Shown one piece after another: positions 1-16,917 of a stretch of DNA of 20,980 nucleotides (within the stretch, counting starts at the first letter, position 1; every line of letters starts with the position of its first letter). Origin of the DNA: a virus (Duplodnaviria > Heunggongvirae > Uroviricota > Caudoviricetes); the IMG/VR virus record IMGVR_UViG_2695420487_000014, one strand, 5' to 3'. A model generated the notes under the pieces. It was given only the letters and a program-made list of their open reading frames with translations. It was not told the DNA's origin and did not search any database. A program made the position numbers and the translations under genes.

Positions 1-222
1 TCAGTATCTCGATAAGCGCAGAGAAATGATGCAGTGGTGGGCGGATTGGCTTGATGAAAAAGTGGAGTAATCCGGACCGTACTTCTTTATCCAGGCATAA
101 AGGCTGTGGGTGGTGATATCGAGACGTGTTGCAACGCTGGCAACAGAATAACCGCGATCAACAACCTGTTTGACTGCTTCAGTTTTAAACTCTTCGGGAT
201 AACGCTTACCGCTCATGGGCAC
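1..222 (-). CDS. IS3-family transposase OrfA-like protein (HTH N-terminus), 73-aa ORF whose stop sits at the window edge
   Basis: Translation MPMSGKRYPEEFKTEAVKQVVDRGYSVASVATRLDITTHSLYAWIKKYGPD has the helix-turn-helix N-terminus typical of IS3-family OrfA; GAGAGG Shine-Dalgarno 6-8 nt upstream of the ATG at 222; the last ~20 aa look unconserved and the remainder of the element lies outside the window. Confidence 0.55.
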   Translation of the reverse strand: MPMSGKRYPEEFKTEAVKQVVDRGYSVASVATRLDITTHSLYAWIKKYGPDYSTFSSSQSAHHCIISLRLSRY

Positions 223-270
223 CTCTCTTTAAGCCATCTTAAATGACTCTGAGGTGTCTGTTAAACCCGT
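223..270 (-). mobile_element. Probable left terminal region (inverted repeat) of the IS3-family element carrying the OrfA above
   Basis: On the minus strand the sequence begins TGAATCGCCACGG... (IS3-family ends typically start 5'-TG) and runs directly into the OrfA RBS/ATG; it abuts the point where IS2-like homology starts on the other strand. Confidence 0.35.
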
Positions 271-766
271 GGCGATTCAAAACTGCGTGTTACGTTCGCC
301 CTGGACTGTTGCGATCGTGAAGCCATAGACTGGGCCGCAAGCACGGGAGGTTACGATAAAGCGACAGTGCAGGATGTCATGTTAGGAGCGATAGAAAAAC
401 GCTTTGGCGATAAAGTACCGGAACAGTCCATCCAGTGGCTGACAGATAACGGTTCAGCGTATAGAGCGCATGAAACATGGCAGTTCGCCAGAGAGTTGAA
501 TCTGGAGCCCTGCACAACGGCAATCAGCAGTCCTCAGAGTAATGGAATGGCAGAAAGGTTCGTGAAAACGATGAAGGAAGACTACATCGCGTTCATGCCG
601 AAACCGAATGTAAGAACGGCATTGCATAATCTTGCAGTGGCGATCGAACATTACAATGAAAACCATCCGCACAGTGCGTTGGGTTATCGCTCTCCGCGAG
701 AATATCGACGTCAGCGGGTAACGTTAACTTAAGATACACCCCCTGTCTGGAAATAAGGGGGCAAGA
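271..766 (+). mobile_element. IS2-like (IS3 family, IS2 group) element, 3' remnant: transposase OrfB C-terminal DDE/rve domain plus right terminal inverted repeat
   Basis: Frame of ORF 367..732 extended upstream reads ...[42 protein letters not shown]...[21 protein letters not shown]...[16 protein letters not shown]...[14 protein letters not shown], co-linear with remembered IS2 InsD C-terminus (about 75 percent nt identity by eye); 3' end CTGTCTGGAAATAAGGGGGCAA resembles the IS2 right IR; the N-terminal ~180 codons and the orfA of this element are missing. Confidence 0.7.
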
Positions 767-773
767 ACAATGA

Positions 774-1526
774 TCAGATTCCCTGGTGAGTAAGAATTTT
801 ACTTTCTGAACTGCTCTGAGAGTATTGACTTGGAGAAACACCAAAATAACGTCTAAATACATAAGTAAAGTATGAGACACTGGCATAACCACAGACCTTA
901 GCTACTTTACTAATAGGATAACAACGAGTGCTGAGTAAATATTCAGCCATTTGCATCCTCTCATCAAGTATGATCTTACTGAATGATACCCCCTCTTCTT
1001 TCAATTTCCTCTTTAGTAAACTTTCGCTGAGATATAATCTTGATGATATATCCTTAAGACGCCATGGTGCAGATAAATCCGTATGAATAATCGTTTTAAC
1101 TTTAGCCCCTGTGCTTTTCAAACATTCAAACAGAAATACTCCAAATTGTTTTTCAGAAGAAAATGCAGAGAGACATGTAAAAGCAATAGACTCATCAAAA
1201 ATTTCTATGTATTCAGCACAGTGATTAGCCCAACTAATTAATCCTTTAATTAAACTGAAGTCAGCAAAGTTTATTTTTAAATAAGATGGATATTCCCTAC
1301 AATCAGAAATATCCCTTAAGTTATTAGCTTTCAAATAGCGACTAATAAACTCAGCGCCAAAATCCGCCACTATCACTCTTTCAGGATATGTCAGGAAAAA
1401 ATCTCTAGAGCTAGAGTCGACAAGTACAGATGAACCTCTCTCCAGAAACACACTCTCTTTTCCGAAATAAACATCAAAGGACTCCAAAATCAATATAACT
1501 GAACATGTAGTTGCCATATCATCCAC
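774..1526 (-). CDS. AraC/XylS-family transcriptional regulator (AppY/EnvY-like), low GC
   Basis: 250-aa ORF; C-terminus ...WRLKDISSRLYLSESLLKRKLKEEGVSFSKIILDERMQMAEYLLSTRCYPISKVAKVCGYASVSYFTYVFRRYFGVSPSQY is a canonical AraC double-HTH domain, roughly 50 percent identical to the remembered AppY C-terminus; AT-rich codon usage suggests horizontal acquisition; start could be M1 (1526) or M4 (1517). Confidence 0.8.
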   Translation of the reverse strand: MDDMATTCSVILILESFDVYFGKESVFLERGSSVLVDSSSRDFFLTYPERVIVADFGAEFISRYLKANNLRDISDCREYPSYLKINFADFSLIKGLISWANHCAEYIEIFDESIAFTCLSAFSSEKQFGVFLFECLKSTGAKVKTIIHTDLSAPWRLKDISSRLYLSESLLKRKLKEEGVSFSKIILDERMQMAEYLLSTRCYPISKVAKVCGYASVSYFTYVFRRYFGVSPSQYSQSSSESKILTHQGI

Positions 1527-2101
1527 CCAACTTAACTGAAACCAGGATGAAGTATATGCATATAAAGTTCACTTTGCCAAACTTCAATATAAAAAACCAC
1601 ATAAAAAATAGGGTGTGATAAAAAATACCGTAACAATAAAGCAAAGGATTATAAATTCCGTTACAGTTACAAATGATACTCAAGAAACAATTCCTTAGGA
1701 AAAACTTATTTACAGCCAATAAGTAAGACACTTATATGATATCAAGTTTTCATAAAACATAACTAGGCTAAATAGCTGCGCCTAATACCGCTACACTTTT
1801 GCCAGCCCATGTTTGCCTCCGGGTATTGACCCCTTCTCTACGCAACTTCAGTTCCCACCACCAACTTTGCGGCAGCTTTGTAGGATCAATGTCTAAAAGA
1901 ATAATGGTGACCGATAAGAAAACGACTGAATAACTGCAAATTTTCGCTCAAAACCTTCCTGTCAGATCCATAGCGAATCAAGTGCTGAATGTCACAGTAT
2001 CGAACAGAAAACAGTGACGATCTAACCCTTCAAGAATATTCTACGATTGTTCTGTTTAGGAAAAGCAAGGCGGGAAGTCGGGAGATAAGTCATTGATAAA
2101 G

Positions 2102-2163
2102 TGGCGGAGAGAGGGGGATTTGAACCCCCGGTAGAGTTGCCCCTACTCCGGTTTTCGAGACCG
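2102..2163 (-). tRNA. Partial tRNA-Ser gene (3' ~62 nt, serU-type, from anticodon stem through CCA): att-site remnant, not a functional tRNA
   Basis: Minus-strand sequence CGGTCTCGAAAACCGGAGTAGGGGCAACTCTACCGGGGGTTCAAATCCCCCTCTCTCCGCCA matches the 3' two-thirds of E. coli tRNA-Ser(CGA) from memory; the 5' acceptor/D-arm portion is absent (upstream sequence is unrelated). Confidence 0.7.
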
Positions 2164-2906
2164 ATGATACAGAGTCGAAAAATCAAAGAGTTAAAAATTT
2201 TTCTTGGAATAAATGTCTTTAAATCGTACACGAAAAATCAATGAATTACATAACATTAAAGAAGAATATTCCAAGCCTTCTTGAGGCTACCACCTGTTTT
2301 CAGGTGTCATTCAGACGTGATTTGCCCCAGATTGGGAAAGCACGCTTTTTTCTCAGCTATCGTCCTCTTATTTTGCCGTTACATTTCTTTTTGCACTCTA
2401 ATGATTAATTTACAATAATAATATCGGTAATTATTGAGTAATAATAAATTGATTATTGCAAATGTAATTTAATTCCATCTTAGCGTTATATTCCAATCTT
2501 TAATCTCCGCATGGAACAAGTTGCATGCGTGACTATATTAAGACAACTTATAACCACCAAAACATTTGCTTTGCAAGCAAAAACAGTGACCATTGACTCT
2601 AAGAAAATTCCGATCTATTGTTAGGGTCATCAAAGTTACTTAACAGTATTCCGAAATGAAAATACAAAGCAAGCTAATTGTCTTATTAAACATTATTATT
2701 GCATTTATATTATTTGAGCTTTTAGCTCAAAAATTTGGTTTGAGTACATTATTTTAAAGCAAGGTAAACAATATCGGGCACTCTAGTTTTTATAATTAAC
2801 AATTAAACGTCCATAAAATGTTATTTACTTTTCTTCGCTATTGTCACATCTTAATATAGTGGCTTACGCCACTCTACTTTCATCACATTTTGTACGTTTA
2901 TGTACT

Positions 2907-2941
2907 CGCCATGAAGCTCTTTCATGGCGATTTTTATTCTT
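2907..2941 (+). terminator. Strong rho-independent terminator hairpin (9-bp perfect stem CGCCATGAA/TTCATGGCG, 5-nt loop, then ATTTTTATTCTT)
   Basis: Perfect inverted repeat followed by a T-run on the plus strand only; lies in an ORF-free AT-rich region. Confidence 0.5.
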
Positions 2942-3021
2942 AATCCAAGAACATACTCCCTATCTATAGCAAAATCACTTTTTGAACAAAAGAATAACGT
3001 ATTTAGGTAATCATTACGAAT

Positions 3022-3603
3022 TTACCCTATAGGTGCTACTGGCCATTCAATATCCTGTGCAGTTGACGTATCAACACGGTTCAGCAATACCCGATACTTT
3101 TTCCAGGCTTCCAGCAACAAGGTTTCTTCCTCCGTTGCGATTTCCAGATCCACAGCATCCTGAAGCGGCGCTATATGCTCACTGGCTACCTGCATCAGGC
3201 TGTTTTTTGTTTCTTCCACCTCCCGGATCCGGAACAGTTTTTCTGCTTCCGTATCCTTCACCCAGGCTGTGCCGTTCCACTTCTGAAACTCCCCTTCCGG
3301 GGATAACCAGGTAACATTTTCCGGTAATGAGCCGAGTTCAGAAATAAATAACGCGTCCCCTGATGCCACGTCATAAACTGTTTTACCCCGATGGTCTTCA
3401 ACAAGATGCCACGATGACTCATCACTGTTGAAAACAGCCACGAAGCCAGCCGGAATATCTGGCGGTGCAATATCGGTACTGTTTGCTGGCAGACCTGTAT
3501 GAGGCGGAATATATGCATCACCTTCACCAATAAATTCATTAGTTCCGGCCAGCAGATTATAAATTTTTATGGTCCGTGGTTGTTCACTCATTCTGAATGC
3601 CAT
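3022..3603 (-). CDS. tfa: Tail fiber assembly protein (Tfa, lambda Tfa / P2 gpG family)
   Basis: 193-aa [43 protein letters not shown]...; start ATG overlaps the stf stop (TAATG) as in lambda stf-tfa. Confidence 0.9.
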
Positions 3604-8056: not shown

Positions 8057-8346
8057 ATCATAACGTCCGGTTTCTTCCGTGTCAGCACCGGGGCGTTGGC
8101 ATAATGCAATACGTGTACGCGCTAAACCCTGTGTGCATCGTTTTTAATTATTCCCGGACACTCCCGCAGAGAAGTTCCCCGTCAGGGCTGTGGACATAGT
8201 TAATCCGGGAATACAATGACGATTCATCGCACCTGACATACATTAATAAATATTAACAATATGAAATTTCAACTCATTGTTTAGGGTTTGTTTAATTTTC
8301 TACACATACGATTCTGCGAACTTCAAAAAGCATCGGGAATAACACC

Positions 8347-8640
8347 ATGAAAAAAATGCTACTCGCTACTGCGCTGGCCCTGCTTATTACAGGATGTGCT
8401 CAACAGACGTTTACTGTTCAAAACAAACCGGCAGCAGTAGCACCAAAGGAAACCATCACCCATCATTTCTTCGTTTCTGGAATTGGGCAGAAGAAAACTG
8501 TCGATGCAGCCAAAATTTGTGGCGGCGCAGAAAATGTTGTTAAAACAGAAACCCAGCAAACATTCGTAAATGGATTGCTCGGTTTTATTACTTTAGGCAT
8601 TTATACTCCGCTGGAAGCGCGTGTGTATTGCTCACAATAA
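8347..8640 (+). CDS. bor: Bor lipoprotein (serum-resistance-associated outer membrane lipoprotein), 97 aa
   Basis: MKKMLLATALALLITGCAQQTFTVQNKPAAVAPKETITHHFFVSGIGQKKTVDAAKICGGAENVVKTETQQTFVNGLLGFITLGIYTPLEARVYCSQ matches lambda Bor; lipobox LITGC; oriented opposite to the lysis genes as in lambda. Confidence 0.9.
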   Translation: MKKMLLATALALLITGCAQQTFTVQNKPAAVAPKETITHHFFVSGIGQKKTVDAAKICGGAENVVKTETQQTFVNGLLGFITLGIYTPLEARVYCSQ

Positions 8641-9842: not shown

Positions 9843-10429
9843 AACCCCACCTCGCAGACAAAGCGGGTGTAAATTGAGGGAATACAACGTATCGCAAAAA
9901 AGCAGAAACTTAACAGACTCGGAGTCAGTGAATAACTCAGGTATTGGGTTATCAGCTAATATCGAGACTCAAAAAATGGAAAAACCCGCTCGACGGCGGG
10001 TTTAAGCTGTGTGACGAAGTAACCACTCTTAACAGCATAACCAATTTTTTACGTACGTAAACCACTAAATGATATTTGCGAGAATGCTACCGAGTATTGA
10101 AAACACCACTACAAATACATAAGCAAATCTCAACAAATAACCAACAAATAATTTCCAGCGTTATTTTTAGCTGGTTTAAATTGAATCTTCAAATTATAGA
10201 GCACTTATAAATAACAGCCATTAATATAAATTGGCTAATAGATTTATTTTTATTCAGCCAAGAGCCATGAATAGGATTCGATAGAAAAAGTTCAGATAAA
10301 AATAGAGATCTACTTCACAAATCAAATGAGAAACCAAAACTTACATCTTGAAATAATCACATTGATTAGATGAATATTTATCGCGCAGTGACATCATTTT
10401 TTAATAATAGTTCAAAAAAAGGGCTCACG

Positions 10430-11512
10430 ATGAAAAAATTAACAGTGGCAATTTCTGCTGTAGCTGCATCAGTACTGATGGCGATGTCTGCTCAGGCAGC
10501 TGAAATTTATAATAAAGACAGTAACAAGCTGGATCTGTACGGGAAAGTTAATGCTAAGCACTACTTCTCCTCTAATGATGCAGATGATGGTGATACTACT
10601 TATGCCCGTCTTGGGTTCAAAGGTGAAACCCAAATCAACGATCAACTGACTGGTTTCGGTCAGTGGGAATATGAATTCAAAGGCAACCGCGCTGAATCTC
10701 AAGGTTCCTCCAAAGATAAAACCCGTCTTGCCTTCGCTGGCCTGAAATTCGGTGACTACGGCTCCATCGATTATGGCCGTAACTACGGTGTAGCATACGA
10801 TATTGGTGCATGGACCGACGTTCTGCCAGAATTCGGTGGCGATACCTGGACCCAAACAGATGTATTCATGACTGGTCGCACCACAGGTGTTGCAACTTAT
10901 CGTAACAATGACTTCTTTGGTCTGGTTGATGGTCTGAACTTTAGTGCTCAGTATCAGGGTAAAAATGACCGCACTGACGTAACTGAAGCTAATGGTGATG
11001 GTTTCGGTTTCTCCACTACTTATGAGTATGAAGGATTCGGTGTAGGTGCAACCTATGCTAAATCTGACCGCACTAATAATCAGGTTATCTACGGTAACAA
11101 CAGCCTGAATGCATCTGGTCAAAATGCTGAAGTATGGGCAGCTGGTCTGAAATATGATGCGAACAACATCTATCTGGCTACCACCTATTCTGAAACCCAG
11201 AACATGACTGTTTTTGGTAATAACCATATTGCCAACAAAGCACAAAACTTCGAAGTAGTTGCACAATATCAGTTCGACTTCGGTCTGCGTCCGTCCGTTG
11301 CTTACCTGCAATCTAAAGGAAAAGACTTGGGTGCGTGGGGTGATCAGGACCTGGTTGAATATATTGATGTAGGTGCAACCTATTACTTCAACAAAAATAT
11401 GTCCACTTTTGTTGATTACAAAATCAACCTGATTGATAAGAGCGATTTCACGAAAGCATCTGGCGTTGCTACCGATGATATCGTTGCTGTAGGTATGGTT
11501 TACCAGTTCTAA
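10430..11512 (+). CDS. nmpC: Outer membrane porin NmpC/OmpD family (OmpC paralogue), apparently intact
   Basis: [23 protein letters not shown] signal peptide, then [24 protein letters not shown]... and C-terminal ...[12 protein letters not shown] (terminal Phe beta-barrel signature); located between Q and S on the opposite strand as in DLP12. Confidence 0.9.
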
Positions 11513-12956: not shown

Positions 12957-13119
12957 GACTCCTCCTTGCTGCCAGTCGCAACCATTTTTTATCAACCAGG
13001 CTGGCGGTATATCCGAGCAGTGTTGGTATTTCGGAAGGCTTCAGCTCCGGTTTACGCTTACGACGATTTGGTACTCTGTAGATGTGTCCGTTCATGACAC
13101 GAATAAGCGGTGTAGCCAT
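12949..13119 (-). CDS. ninE: NinE-like protein, 56 aa (below the ORF-track size cutoff)
   Basis: [56 protein letters not shown]; ATG shares a base with the ybcN stop (TAATG); 3' end overlaps the ybcO start. Confidence 0.65.
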   Translation of the reverse strand: MATPLIRVMNGHIYRVPNRRKRKPELKPSEIPTLLGYTASLVDKKWLRLAARRSHG

Positions 13120-13574
13120 TACGCCTCCTGTTTGTCGCGGAGCTGCTGGAACTCGCAGCTCTGCGGAATAGTCAGGTGGCAGCCAATATTCACCGCCCAG
13201 GCTTCAACCTTACACAGGAAGATATACATCTCTCCGGTATCAAGATCGGAGGTATGGCGTAACGACTGGATAGTAGTGATTTCGCCGGTTACGACATCAA
13301 CCAGGTCCTTGGTTTCATAACCGAGGTATGTGTGTTTGAGAGCATCTTTTACCCATGCTGCGGTAGCGAACGATTTCCCCCTGCTGATGAGGTATTCACT
13401 GATTTCGCTGTACCACATGTGGCTGAGTGCATTCTGGGAAAGACTGCGTTTCTCACGCCACGGTTTAAGCACCATGCGAAAGCATTTTCCGTCCTCCAGA
13501 TAAGGCTGGATCTGCTGGCCGATAGCGGTGAAGTTACCGCGATGCAGTTTGATGCCATCTTGTGGTAGGTTCAC
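13119..13574 (-). CDS. ybcN: YbcN-like nin-region protein (DUF1367), 151 aa
   Basis: [69 protein letters not shown]...; GTG start. Confidence 0.8.
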
Positions 13575-13672
13575 GCTTCACCTCCGCAGAGGTCAGACGC
13601 TGGATGCAAAAAATCGCAGGTGCATTTCTGCATCTGTGAAGGGAGAAGAGAGTTTGGATTGTATGTGCGCAT
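13571..13672 (-). CDS. ylcH: Small ORF, YlcH-like, 33 aa
   Basis: [33 protein letters not shown]; its stop overlaps the ybcN GTG start (GTGA); assignment rests on recollection of a short gene upstream of ybcN in DLP12. Confidence 0.35.
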
Positions 13673-13764
13673 AAACGTCCCCGTTTAGCGCAGAAGTCAC
13701 CGGAGTTGTTCAAGCTCCGATGACTTTATTATTACGAATTGATTTTACAAAATCAAAAGGTATG

Positions 13765-14217
13765 TTAGTGACGCGGGTCTGTTATTATGCGAGAAGGGTT
13801 TCCGTATAAAACAAGGACCTTACTTCCTTGAGTAAATAACGGATCTTTGCCTTGAACAATGGTCATTAAATTCCCATTCTCAGTTTCGACAACATATTCC
13901 ATGCCTGTTTGTTTTGTTGCTGAAGATTCGATTGCTGCCCCGGCAATACCACCAATGACTGCACCACCAACGGCACCAACGATATTAGAACGAACTCCCC
14001 CACCAAGCGCAGAACCAGCGGTTGCCCCCACGGCAGCCCCAGCAGTCCCGCCTAACGCGGAAGTCCCACTGATATCAACCCCCCTAGCACTAATAACTGT
14101 ACCAGCGATAGTTCGATTAACCATGCCCACAGAGCCAACAGAATAACTATTTGGCGATATATTTTGTGCGCATCCAACCAACACTAAGAGTGGAGCAATT
14201 ACGAATAATCGCTTCAT
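13765..14217 (-). CDS. Outer-membrane lipoprotein with glycine-zipper domain, SlyB/Pcp-like, 150 aa
   Basis: Lipobox LVGC; central Gly/Ala zipper GGTAGAAVGATAGSALGGGVRSNIVGAVGGAVIGGIAGAAI; C-terminal ...GNLMTIVQGKDPLFTQGSKVLVLYG parallels the SlyB C-terminal beta segment; ATG overlaps the stop of the upstream lipoprotein gene (ATGA). Confidence 0.7.
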   Translation of the reverse strand: MKRLFVIAPLLVLVGCAQNISPNSYSVGSVGMVNRTIAGTVISARGVDISGTSALGGTAGAAVGATAGSALGGGVRSNIVGAVGGAVIGGIAGAAIESSATKQTGMEYVVETENGNLMTIVQGKDPLFTQGSKVLVLYGNPSRIITDPRH

Positions 14218-14774
14218 TTAGCTACCCTAACAGGAAACATTGGACGAGAAAGATCAACACTTTCTAATGCTTGCAAGAACTGCGTTATGTTGTTTTGCAC
14301 CGCGCGATTAACAGATTCGCGTGCTCGAACAATACCGTAGAATGCGTAACTGGCTGGAACAGTACCGGTAGACTCAATATCCTGCGTATATATAATATCA
14401 CCATTCGCACGGTTGATTATTTCATACCTTGCAATTGCTTTAGTTGTCATTGAAACACCAAAAGCAGGAACGTCAAGAGCCAACACTTTAACATTTAAGC
14501 TAACCGTATTTGGTGAACTATCACGAAAAATAGTCATTCGGTCGAGTGCTTCCTGCAAAGATTCACGCCAAATTGGAGTTATAGCCTCCATACCAGCAGT
14601 GATATCCCCTTTCTGCTCATCTGGACGAGCAAGTGATACCGTTAATGACTTAATTTCAGCATCTATTTTTTTCTGGCTAACTCCCACGTTAGGTGTTGAA
14701 AAATTCAATGGTGGCACACTAGCGCAACCTGTTAAAGAACCAATAATCATGGCTAATAATATTATCTTCTTCAT
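14214..14774 (-). CDS. Lipoprotein of unknown function, 186 aa (first gene of a two-lipoprotein operon)
   Basis: MKKIILLAMIIGSLTGCASVPP... with lipobox LTGC; AAGG Shine-Dalgarno 6 nt upstream; translationally coupled to the SlyB-like gene. Confidence 0.7.
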   Translation of the reverse strand: MKKIILLAMIIGSLTGCASVPPLNFSTPNVGVSQKKIDAEIKSLTVSLARPDEQKGDITAGMEAITPIWRESLQEALDRMTIFRDSSPNTVSLNVKVLALDVPAFGVSMTTKAIARYEIINRANGDIIYTQDIESTGTVPASYAFYGIVRARESVNRAVQNNITQFLQALESVDLSRPMFPVRVAK

Positions 14775-15030
14775 AAATTTACCTTATTGTTATAACCAAA
14801 GGAATTATAAAGTAAAAAAGTTCACTATCACTAGCCATTAACGACATCAATTTCAGAGAAACATGGTACTCATTTCCACAAATTTGACACAAGTCATTTT
14901 CACCTACATATTCCATCATACTTGATGCATATGTTATTGAAGCCTCTATCCTATCCGTTCATAATAGCAATAGTTACCCGGGTGATAGTACCTCTATGAT
15001 TACTCGTCTTTCTGATTGATTGGATTAAAT

Positions 15031-15222
15031 ATGCGCGCCAAAATTTATCAACTTTCGTTATGGATATTTATTTCGTTTCTAGCGATCTATGCCTTTATTA
15101 TCTATAAAGGTTCTTATATTGGAGTAGCATTGCATCAAATTGCTTGGATCATCATTATTGCCTCTGGCTTGATTGCTAGGCTAACTAAACCAAAGCAAAA
15201 ACCAATTTCGTCCAATAATTAG
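15031..15222 (+). CDS. Possible small two-helix membrane protein, ~63 aa from the ATG (ORF open from TTG at 15016)
   Basis: MRAKIYQLSLWIFISFLAIYAFIIYKGSYIGVALHQIAWIIIIASGLIARLTKPKQKPISSNN: two hydrophobic helices and a basic tail; divergent from the lipoprotein operon; weak RBS and AT-rich, so it may be a chance ORF. Confidence 0.3.
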   Translation: MRAKIYQLSLWIFISFLAIYAFIIYKGSYIGVALHQIAWIIIIASGLIARLTKPKQKPISSNN

Positions 15223-15379
15223 ACATGTATTAAAAAAATGATATTTTTATGTACATAGTCTATTGAAAATTGCCGCGATAAAATGCCAACACCCGCTTCA
15301 TCGCGGCACTCTGGCGACACTCCTTGAAAATCAGATTCGTGCTCACCTTTCCTTCCCGTTCTTCCCTGGTAGCGAACCG

Positions 15380-15827
15380 GTAATCATCCGATCTGCGTTA
15401 CCGAGTGGATGGATGAATGCCGCCGCGAACCATTCAAAACCCGCGAAGGCAGAGAAATTACGGGGCCGTGGCAGTCGCATCCCAAACGGATGTTACGGCA
15501 TAAAGCCATGATTCAGTGGCCCGTCTGGCCTTCGGATTTGCTGGTATCTATGACAAGGATGAAGCCGAGCGCATTGTCGAAAATACCGCATACACCGCAG
15601 AACGTCAGCCGGAACGCGACATTACTCCGGTTAACGATGAAACCATGCAGGAGATTAACACTCTGCTGATTGCCCTGGACAAAACATGGGATGACGACTT
15701 ATTGCCGCTCTGTTCCCAGATATTTCGCCGCGACATTCGCGCATCGTCAGAACTGACACAGGCCGAAGCAGTGAAAGCTCTTGGATTCCTGAAACAGAAA
15801 GCCACTGAGCAGAAGGTGGCAGCATGA
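15380..15827 (+). pseudogene. bet: Recombination protein Bet (lambda RecT-like), C-terminal ~150 codons only, with a 1-bp deletion frameshift near 15517
   Basis: NHPICVTEWMDECRREPFKTREGREITGPWQSHPKRMLRHKAMIQ in one frame and ARLAFGFAGIYDKDEAERIVENTAYTAERQPERDITPVNDETMQEINTLLIALDKTWDDDLLPLCSQIFRRDIRASSELTQAEAVKALGFLKQKATEQKVAA in the next, together matching remembered lambda Bet; upstream of ~15380 homology is lost. Confidence 0.85.
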
Positions 15828-15880
15828 CACCGGACATTATCCTGCAGCGTACCATCGATTGTGCTGACACTGCTGGATGA
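15824..15880 (+). pseudogene. exo: Exonuclease Exo 5' stub (first ~10 codons MTPDIILQRT, then unrelated sequence and a stop after 18 codons)
   Basis: ATG overlaps the bet stop in the lambda arrangement (GCAGCATGACACCGG); downstream sequence does not continue as exo. Confidence 0.5.
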
Positions 15881-16302: not shown

Positions 16303-16917
16303 ATGAAAAAATCAATACTAATTTTAGGGCTTACGTTAATTGTCTCATCTCAAATACCATCGGCAATGGCAAAAAATGAATCAAGACTTTGGGTTGTTGT
16401 TGATCGAACGGAAAGACATACCTGCCCTTCAAGTAAATGTGGAGTGGCTGGGAAACTATTTTTCAGGGAAGGCGTAGATTTTCTAGAAAAAAAAGGTGAA
16501 TGGGTTCGTATAACTGAGCCATATTCAGCCTCATGTGTGGGAGGGGAAAGCGAATATATTAAAGAAGGTAATAAATCCTGCACAAGAAAAAACGGAATCG
16601 TCAATGGCAAGTTTTCAGAATGGGTTAAACTTAGTGATCTTAGCAGTGAAAGGCCATCAGATCCTGCTGAAAATGCGAGCGGAGATGATACTTTAATCAA
16701 AGGATCTGATGACTACCGTATATACAAAAAAGAGTTTTCTTCGGCAGCTAGGAAGTTAATAAACGAAGGGGTCTGCACGGAAAGCGACTTTAAGGAAATC
16801 GGAGGGTGGATGGCATCAAGCAATAAGGGGAAAAACATCTATTTCACATATTGCGGAGGAATGACGTTGTCGAACAGAATATACCTAGACGTTAAAAGTG
16901 GAAAGACTTTTAGATAA
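16303..16917 (+). CDS. Secreted protein of unknown function, 204 aa, low GC, Cys-containing
   Basis: Signal peptide MKKSILILGLTLIVSSQIPSAMA (AMA then K, SPase I type, no lipobox); 8 Cys in the mature part; N-terminal segment RLWVVVDRTERHTCPSSKCGVAGKLFFREGVDFLEKKGEWVRI is SH3b-like by eye. Confidence 0.6.
   Translation: MKKSILILGLTLIVSSQIPSAMAKNESRLWVVVDRTERHTCPSSKCGVAGKLFFREGVDFLEKKGEWVRITEPYSASCVGGESEYIKEGNKSCTRKNGIVNGKFSEWVKLSDLSSERPSDPAENASGDDTLIKGSDDYRIYKKEFSSAARKLINEGVCTESDFKEIGGWMASSNKGKNIYFTYCGGMTLSNRIYLDVKSGKTFR

Follow-up and report, generated by a model that had tools for sequence, protein, structure and literature searches.

Two described outer-membrane systems can be compared with the locus analysed here, a pair of adjoining lipoprotein genes (termed protA and protB) carried by a prophage within a 20,980-nt stretch of Caudoviricetes DNA (IMG/VR record IMGVR_UViG_2695420487_000014; the whole stretch is referred to as the window). 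When the envelope is under stress, SlyB, a lipoprotein with a glycine-zipper hairpin, forms rings that enclose lipid and outer-membrane proteins; YfgH, a paralogue of SlyB, has been proposed to behave alike (bioRxiv 10.64898/2025.12.22.696046). TraT, which is encoded on chromosomes and plasmids, assembles into a decameric outer-membrane ring with a lipid plug, each chain being made up of an LptE-like core and two transmembrane helices, and it confers surface exclusion and serum resistance (PMC12658005, PMC11733297). Here, we report that protB is, as judged by sequence and predicted structure, a paralogue of SlyB, and that it is almost always found directly behind protA, a gene for a second lipoprotein with a predicted LptE-like fold. 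The pair is found on bacterial chromosomes and in several unrelated temperate phages, and we consider what such a module might do in the envelope of a lysogen.

Results

Two overlapping lipoprotein genes

Both genes lie on the minus strand. protA (14774..14214) encodes a predicted outer-membrane lipoprotein of 186 aa (MKKIILLAMIIGSLTGC) with the lipobox LTGC, Cys17 and an Ala at position +2, and protB (14217..13765) encodes the 150-aa SlyB paralogue (MKRLFVIAPLLVLVGC) with the lipobox LVGC, Cys16 and, again, an Ala at +2. An earlier note on this DNA had described a pair of lipobox proteins whose genes overlap by ATGA at 14214..14217, and both open reading frames (ORFs) were recovered at exactly these coordinates. 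The plus strand at 14214-14217 reads TCAT, and thus ATGA on the coding (minus) strand, so that the TGA stop of protA shares bases with the ATG of protB. On the evidence of this overlap, the two genes are translationally coupled and their products would be made in a fixed ratio. Under the Lol sorting rule, an Ala at +2 after the lipid-modified Cys directs a lipoprotein to the outer membrane; from the lipobox and this residue, both proteins are predicted to be outer-membrane lipoproteins.

When non-synonymous (pN) and synonymous (pS) divergence was computed against orthologues from Klebsiella oxytoca, Serratia, Edaphovirga and one phage contig, strong purifying selection was seen on both genes (pN 0.10-0.24 versus pS 0.72-0.88 per site, with synonymous sites saturated). 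Given this selection and the many database homologues of the two proteins, we take protA and protB to be genuine genes and not chance ORFs.

The pair as a conserved module

Loci with protA relatives were gathered from reference genomes, metagenomes and IMG/VR. Since a single-protein scan of genome contigs gave only three loci, the survey rests on scans of metagenomes and IMG/VR in which an alignment was used as the query. A SlyB-like gene lay directly downstream of protA, on the same strand, at 88 of 89 genome and metagenome loci, including one at which the gene caller had overlooked protB. The same was true of viral contigs: all 34 whose protA relative was 61% or more identical had protB downstream. 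Stop and start codons overlapped in 78 of 90 pairs (by 4 nt in 52 and by 1 nt in 26), and the spacer never exceeded 20 nt. The divergence of A was correlated with that of B (Pearson 0.83 for 57 non-redundant pairs), and no third conserved gene was found beside the pair among its flanks. The dedicated partnership that the earlier note had postulated is therefore borne out by the 88 of 89 loci, and gene order and co-divergence together indicate that protA-protB is a self-contained two-gene module with a near-obligate partnership. In both proteins, the segments that tether the body of the protein are unusually conserved (PPLNFSVPNVG, and also KPMFP, in protA and SYSVGSVGxVNRT in protB). Tethers are normally variable, and their conservation, taken with the near-universal coupling of the genes, fits specific contacts between A and B.

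protB is a SlyB paralogue

Escherichia coli SlyB (PDB 7ojf; the protein is also in entry 7OJG) and protB could be aligned over their full length (phmmer E 1.3e-14, residues 2-149 versus 3-155, 34% identity), and a profile built from 42 protB orthologues had SlyB as its sole match when searched against the PDB (E 6.9e-16). The AlphaFold2 (AF2) model of protB (predicted local distance difference test, pLDDT, 73) consists of a strand, a helical hairpin and a C-terminal beta domain. A Foldseek search with this model returned 7ojf_A, chain A of the SlyB13-BamA cryo-electron microscopy structure, as the top match (probability 1.0, E 3.9e-8, template modelling scores 0.58/0.62), with TraT a distant second. 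The glycine-zipper hairpin occupies approximately residues 55-101, with a Gly/Ala-rich run at 53-97, and glycine-zipper models in Pfam match 35-36 of the 42 orthologues (PF05433 at E <= 0.01 in 35). Cys16 is unchanged in all 42. By alignment and by model, protB is a clear homologue and paralogue of SlyB, as the earlier note had suspected from the sequence, with the whole SlyB layout of lipobox, N-terminal strand, glycine-zipper hairpin and C-terminal beta domain.

The database holds 581 homologues of protB. Its orthologues are 42-100% identical to one another, as against 26-38% to SlyB, and by this measure they form a subfamily separate from SlyB. The two also differ in their genetic setting: protB is always preceded by a translationally coupled partner gene, whereas slyB itself is monocistronic, and in E. 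coli the protB subfamily is accessory and phage-borne, whereas slyB is part of the core genome.

protA has an LptE-like predicted fold

Searches with protA returned 512 homologues (best E 2.9e-112), with identities of 58-87%, and 460 representatives at 50% clustering; the family extends across Klebsiella, Serratia, Edaphovirga, Bordetella, Pusillimonas, Xanthomonas, Stenotrophomonas, Lysobacter and Luteimonas. Beyond the lipobox, protA had no match in Pfam, NCBIfam or the sequences of the PDB, and no Pfam domain was matched by any of 66 diverse members of the family. The AF2 model is confident (pLDDT 84, predicted template modelling score 0.76) and shows a beta-alpha-beta-beta-beta-alpha two-layer sandwich behind the lipid anchor. 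Its nearest structural neighbours are proteins of the PqiC family (DUF330) and LptE, at sequence identities of 7-14%, and protA is thus predicted to have a fold like that of LptE, PqiC, PelC and the core of TraT. This fold is typical of outer-membrane lipoproteins that form rings or plug barrels. While the model of protA shares its alpha/beta fold with PqiC/DUF330 (XCC0632), LptE and PelC, the protein has no Pfam match to those families, and no genes for an MCE transporter (PqiAB), LptD or the Pel system (PelB) are conserved beside the pair.

The names under which protA is deposited were also examined. The label "UDP-N-acetylglucosamine acyltransferase" has spread through NCBI and UniRef entries of the protA family in many genera; such an identity is ruled out by the lipobox, the size of 186 aa and the predicted fold. 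A newer name, given by the NCBI Prokaryotic Genome Annotation Pipeline (PGAP), places protA in the YajG family, and here the curated thresholds are not reached. PF03923 (Lipoprotein_16) did not match protA at E values up to 1, nor any of the 66 family members at E up to 0.01, and with the NCBIfam YajG model PRK11627 protA scored 11.4 bits against a cutoff of 242. E. coli YajG itself scored 176.8 bits. A direct BLASTP comparison of YajG with protA gave 26% identity over 166 residues (E 2e-4, for a single comparison), and hhalign gave a probability of 93.5% over the N-terminal 103 columns (columns 5-112), a region that includes the signal peptide. A remote relationship of the two, both lipoproteins of about 190 aa, is possible on these alignments. 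Their neighbourhoods differ, yajG adjoining ampG and protA adjoining a slyB-like gene.

A separate observation concerns the wider family. At one locus (L095 in our numbering of loci, positions 1-3585), a distant protA-family lipoprotein of 35% identity is encoded directly after waaA, lpxK and a gene for a short-chain dehydrogenase/reductase, with no SlyB-like partner. This single locus hints at a link between the wider protA family and lipopolysaccharide (LPS).

Distribution on chromosomes and in phages

In E. coli the pair is an accessory trait. It was found in 280 of 5426 complete genomes (~5%), among them clinical and animal isolates, and was chromosomal in every case, with all copies at least 99% identical. 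None of the E. coli copies inspected lay outside a prophage context. These figures speak against a housekeeping locus of the E. coli core genome, one of the outcomes that the earlier note had named as refuting its proposal. Plasmid carriage was considered and rejected, since the pair was absent from plasmids, where only distant partial matches of 26-28% identity were found. Among 50,697 deposited phage genomes, just one carried the pair.

An unbiased picture of its context was obtained from 22 non-redundant loci in genomes and metagenomes, all with 2.5 kb or more on both sides, which together gave 121 flanking ORFs. Most of these ORFs were chromosomal, with products such as TonB-dependent receptors, response regulators, MdoG, aconitase, IlvD and a lipid A acyltransferase, and phage hallmarks were present at only a few of the loci. 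One chromosomal copy of the pair adjoins pgaABCD. The module is thus mainly a chromosomal accessory unit of Xanthomonadales, Burkholderiales and some Enterobacterales, and the earlier description of a prophage-borne pair applies to E. coli but not to the module at large, which is not phage-specific.

Temperate phages have nonetheless captured the pair repeatedly, at no fewer than four different positions. In addition to the slot between ren and ninB that it occupies in the window, a copy with 72-74% identity is inserted in the tail module of a siphophage, with the tape-measure gene on one side and a minor tail gene on the other (L121 4665-9397; also L019 and L123), and another lies between the genes for the terminase large subunit and the portal (L126). 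At a further site, the pair follows 42-49 nt downstream of co-oriented genes for CI-like repressors, of which there are at least three alleles (L125, L127/L128/L055 and L129). The IMG/VR contigs in which repressor and pair stand together (L125 7259-9025, L127 7203-9031 and L129 7193-9031) represent high-GC, Xanthomonadales-like prophages, and their layout is operon-like and resembles lambda cI-rexA-rexB. Elsewhere (L124, L130, L132, L031 and L038), the pair is convergent with a CI-like repressor gene. On the question raised in the earlier note, whether the pair recurs in other prophages at the same position, phage PhiR30_1 has the pair in the same ren-ninB slot and other phages have it at other sites.

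Existing resources do not describe the pair. Its two genes match phrog_12521 and phrog_13877, both of which are labelled "unknown function" in PHROGs; PADLOC had no match for either protein. The earlier statement that no such two-gene module is known agrees with our searches, in which neither the literature nor Pfam or PADLOC yielded a description of the pair.

A cargo slot in a defective lambdoid prophage

The element in the window is a lambdoid prophage of the DLP12 type; it is defective and occupies the lambda attachment site, with ybhB and ybhC on either side. The identical sequence is annotated in many RefSeq genomes. The PGAP annotation of this identical locus (L001; window coordinate = L001 - 401) agrees with the flanking genes named in the earlier note, ylcH/ybcN (ninB) and a bet remnant. 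protA and protB lie in a low-GC segment of 1.53 kb (13758..15287) between the 3' end of ren and ylcH/ninB. Directly downstream of this segment is the phage backbone, with ylcH (13672..13571, minus strand) and ybcN/ninB (13574..13119, minus strand). On its other side is a C-terminal remnant of ren (15260..15382, minus strand), whose upstream end is a deletion junction and which abuts a C-terminal remnant of recT/bet (15382..15828, plus strand).

In an alignment with DLP12 of E. coli K-12, homology ends ~25 nt before the ren stop codon (~15287) and resumes ~8 nt past the stop codon of protB (~13757). The same slot in K-12 holds emrE-ylcJ-ybcK-ybcL-ybcM. The GC content of sequence windows lying mostly inside the segment is 32-44%, compared with ~51% in the flanks, and rises to 47-51% over the stretch of protB that is rich in glycine codons. 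The pair is thus phage moron cargo: a discrete insert of deviant composition with breakpoints in the backbone. As breakpoint-flanked cargo with deviant GC content and cell-surface products, it resembles Bor, Lom, Cor, Llp of phage T5 and RexAB of lambda, the last also because in some phages the pair stands directly after the repressor gene. It differs from all of these in sequence, to which it is unrelated, and in being a two-lipoprotein operon with a SlyB paralogue.

The earlier note had placed the pair where the immunity region should be, and on this point it was mistaken. In the intact phage PhiR30_1 (PV340558), the identical pair comes after cI, cro, cII, O, P and ren and is followed by ninB, which shows that the lipoprotein genes did not replace the immunity genes; several E. 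coli contigs from IMG/VR likewise retain cI ~3.4-4.7 kb upstream of the pair. In the window, the head-to-head junction of the ren (minus) and recT/bet (plus) remnants at ~15382 marks the loss of kil, cIII, N, cI, cro, cII, O and P by deletion. A second E. coli genome that was inspected had the same defective prophage with this junction, a recurrence which indicates that the defective prophage has been inherited in that form. The idea of an immunity-region replacement, wrong for this locus, is unexpectedly apt for some Xanthomonadales-type prophages, in which the pair follows a repressor gene.

The cargo segment contains one further ORF, small and divergent (15016..15222, plus strand), for a hydrophobic product of 68 aa that probably has two transmembrane helices. 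It is confined to E. coli-type loci, is hypothetical in PhiR30_1 and unannotated by PGAP, and had no match in Pfam or PHROGs. It is not part of the conserved module.

Other genes were noted in the same prophage. A general porin is encoded by an intact ORF at the nmpC position (window 10370-11512, plus strand; Porin_1 E 1.4e-152); in the annotation of strain JNQH498, the porin gene has an internal stop and is listed as a pseudogene. A second low-GC island (37-40% GC), among remnants of the early region, encodes a protein of 204 aa that begins with a signal peptide (WP_000748284.1; window 16303-16917, plus strand). It had no Pfam match and may be another secreted moron.

Candidate regulatory signals

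A candidate sigma-70 promoter on the minus strand (14831..14804) consists of GTGATA, a 16-nt spacer and TATAAT (14809-14804) and lies ~30 nt upstream of the protA ATG, with a Shine-Dalgarno AAGG at 14785-14782 (minus strand). The site matches the consensus at 10 of 12 positions, with a perfect TATAAT, although such sites are no more numerous in the region than in shuffled sequences; the pair may well have its own promoter. No terminator was found inside the cargo. A structured RNA in the 0.5-kb leader was considered and dropped when Rfam gave no match.

slyB is expressed as a single-gene transcript under PhoP control. The possibility that the pair is regulated in the same way was examined and rejected: there is no credible box by protA, and the sole perfect PhoP box in the window lies upstream of bor. 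This box-like direct repeat, TGTTTAGGGTTTGTTTA (window 8278-8294, plus strand), is the only zero-mismatch match in the window and is situated 53 nt before the start of bor (8347-8640; Lambda_Bor, PF06291). A perfect box at this place fits the membership of bor/borD in the Mg2+/PhoP regulon.

Discussion

The explanation that we favour, to which we would give an even chance of being right, is that protA-protB specifies a SlyB-type outer-membrane ring with a dedicated partner and acts as a lysogenic-conversion module. By this account, a horizontally mobile two-gene envelope module would supply two outer-membrane lipoproteins in a fixed ratio. By analogy with SlyB, protB would oligomerise in the outer membrane, where its alpha-helical hairpins would form a ring around a patch of lipid or protein, and protA would be its dedicated 1:1 partner, docking from the periplasm as a cap or adaptor. 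In this way the architecture of TraT, where a single chain has both an LptE-like core and two transmembrane helices, would be rebuilt from two chains. Both elements are found here on separate chains with a fixed ratio of synthesis, and this leads us to propose a hetero-oligomeric assembly. Its likely effect would be to reinforce or shield the outer membrane locally, which temperate phages may use for lysogenic conversion; the cassette is a candidate for that role. We infer, from these comparisons, that A and B form a physical complex and a ring, that they are expressed in the lysogen and that they confer an envelope phenotype.

The likeness to TraT (PDB 9E2V/9FS5) lies in the LptE-like core and the two transmembrane helices, which here would be split over two genes. 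The pair differs from it in having two polypeptides and not one, and shows no significant similarity to it in sequence: PF05818 matched neither protein of the window, and a weak match was found in only 6 of 42 protB orthologues. Moreover, protA is structurally nearer to DUF330/PqiC and LptE, and no long beta-hairpin of the TraT type is predicted. A more ambitious version of the proposal, which we regard as rather improbable, is that protA-protB corresponds to a TraT divided between two chains: a SlyB-type helical ring capped 1:1 by an LptE-fold lipoprotein, recruited by temperate phages of at least two proteobacterial orders, sometimes into the repressor operon, and shielding the surface of the lysogen against phages, conjugation or complement.

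Several observations weigh against a partnered ring that serves lysogens. SlyB works without such a partner. Distant relatives of protA also stand alone, with no SlyB-like neighbour, at 29-35% identity in contig look-ups and at 44-60% on viral contigs, which indicates that an LptE-like protein of this kind can function on its own and that the obligate partnership is a trait of this subfamily. In the glycine-zipper check suggested in the earlier note, PF05433 matched 35 of 42 orthologues at E up to 0.01, and protB of the window itself scored just below the gathering cutoff (21.1 bits, E 3e-4, against 24.2). Upstream of protA there is no credible PhoP box, and the number of promoter-like sites in the region is not above that in shuffled sequences. 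In E. coli, the identity of at least 99% among all 280 copies means that their retention says little about selection. In strain CM2010-0578/1 (L093 9450-9773), protA is annotated as a 107-aa C-terminal fragment in a region that differs from the window by approximately two bases (99.8% identity over 1010 nt), which suggests occasional inactivation of protA in E. coli.

The last of these points raises an alternative, that the pair sits in a decaying cryptic prophage in E. coli and adds nothing to its host. With the host prophage defective and one protA truncated, the E. coli copies could be such neutral passengers: the prophage is without immunity, replication and most structural genes and carries pseudogenes, the near-identity of the copies points to recent common descent, and protA is annotated as truncated in CM2010-0578/1. 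We nevertheless hold this to be very unlikely as the explanation. Neither ORF is disrupted in the window, and the same goes for nearly every copy that was inspected; the pair also persists in intact lambdoid phages and in IMG/VR contigs with cI, and purifying selection across species is strong. The cargo kept in the same slot of DLP12 is informative here too, since emrE is a functional gene.

It is conceivable, though we think it unlikely, that in phages the pair is a dedicated exclusion device that blocks incoming phages or conjugative DNA by receptor caging, masking or steric interference, in the manner of TraT, Cor and Llp. The lipoproteins Cor and Llp inactivate FhuA, and TraT brings about surface exclusion together with resistance to serum and to some phages. 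A device of this kind would suit the recurrence of the pair in unrelated temperate phages, including its place 42-49 nt after co-oriented CI-like genes, which is the position of rexAB in lambda; BamA is an example of the outer-membrane proteins that are surrounded by SlyB rings (title of PDB 7ojf), and the same prophage has further surface-modifying morons in bor and the porin. The carriage of the pair directly after CI-like repressor genes in unrelated temperate phages does lend some circumstantial support to the receptor-masking and envelope-hardening roles raised in the earlier note. Yet most occurrences in the unbiased sample are among ordinary chromosomal genes, only that one deposited phage genome in 50,697 has the pair, PADLOC gave no match, and neither PHROG family is annotated as superinfection exclusion. 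The conservation of 55-75% across bacterial classes, moreover, is more in keeping with a target of the housekeeping type (lipid, or an envelope machine that is itself conserved) than with a phage receptor, which evolves fast. We find it similarly doubtful that the two lipoproteins are co-transcribed without forming a complex, protA having a role in the handling of lipid, LPS or polysaccharide and protB giving generic SlyB-type stress protection, with coupling a matter of co-expression only. The structural proximity of protA to PqiC-family/DUF330 proteins and LptE would be accounted for in this way, as would the distant relative directly after waaA-lpxK, the others that stand alone, and the chromosomal pair beside pgaABCD. 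It accounts less well for the near-obligate linkage within the subfamily, with its fixed gene order and overlap in 78 of 90 pairs, for the entry of the pair into phages as a unit without transporter or biosynthesis genes, and for the conserved tether segments in both proteins, which suggest specific contacts.

Other precedents were examined and set aside. The yfgH-yfgI pair of E. coli K-12 also places a glycine-zipper lipoprotein gene beside a second gene for a small envelope protein, but it is not a homologous pair: YfgI is a DUF5384 protein unrelated to protA (E 16), the gene order is reversed, and the similarity between protB and YfgH is weak (E 0.009). Roles as spanin, in lysis or in toxin-immunity were dropped without a formal test, as the pair lies outside the lysis cassette, each product is a complete lipoprotein with a signal for sorting to the outer membrane, and the homology of protB to SlyB extends over its whole length.

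The identification of the module corrects two annotations that are spreading through the databases, "UDP-N-acetylglucosamine acyltransferase" and "YajG family lipoprotein". Its wider interest lies with the SlyB family. That glycine-zipper lipoproteins of the SlyB type build protective rings or nanodomains in the outer membrane is a recent insight, and studies have so far treated them as proteins that act alone. A SlyB paralogue that nearly always comes with a specific, strongly conserved and uncharacterised partner predicted to have the fold shared by LptE, PqiC and the TraT core offers a testable case of a hetero-oligomeric alpha-helical assembly in the outer membrane, and may shed light on the origin of TraT-like architectures. 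Its carriage by several unrelated temperate phages, in some of them behind the repressor gene, makes the pair a good candidate for lysogenic conversion. If the reading of the pair as a split TraT were true, it would represent a new class of phage-encoded complex for remodelling the outer membrane, and protA would be the first dedicated partner known for a protein of the SlyB family.

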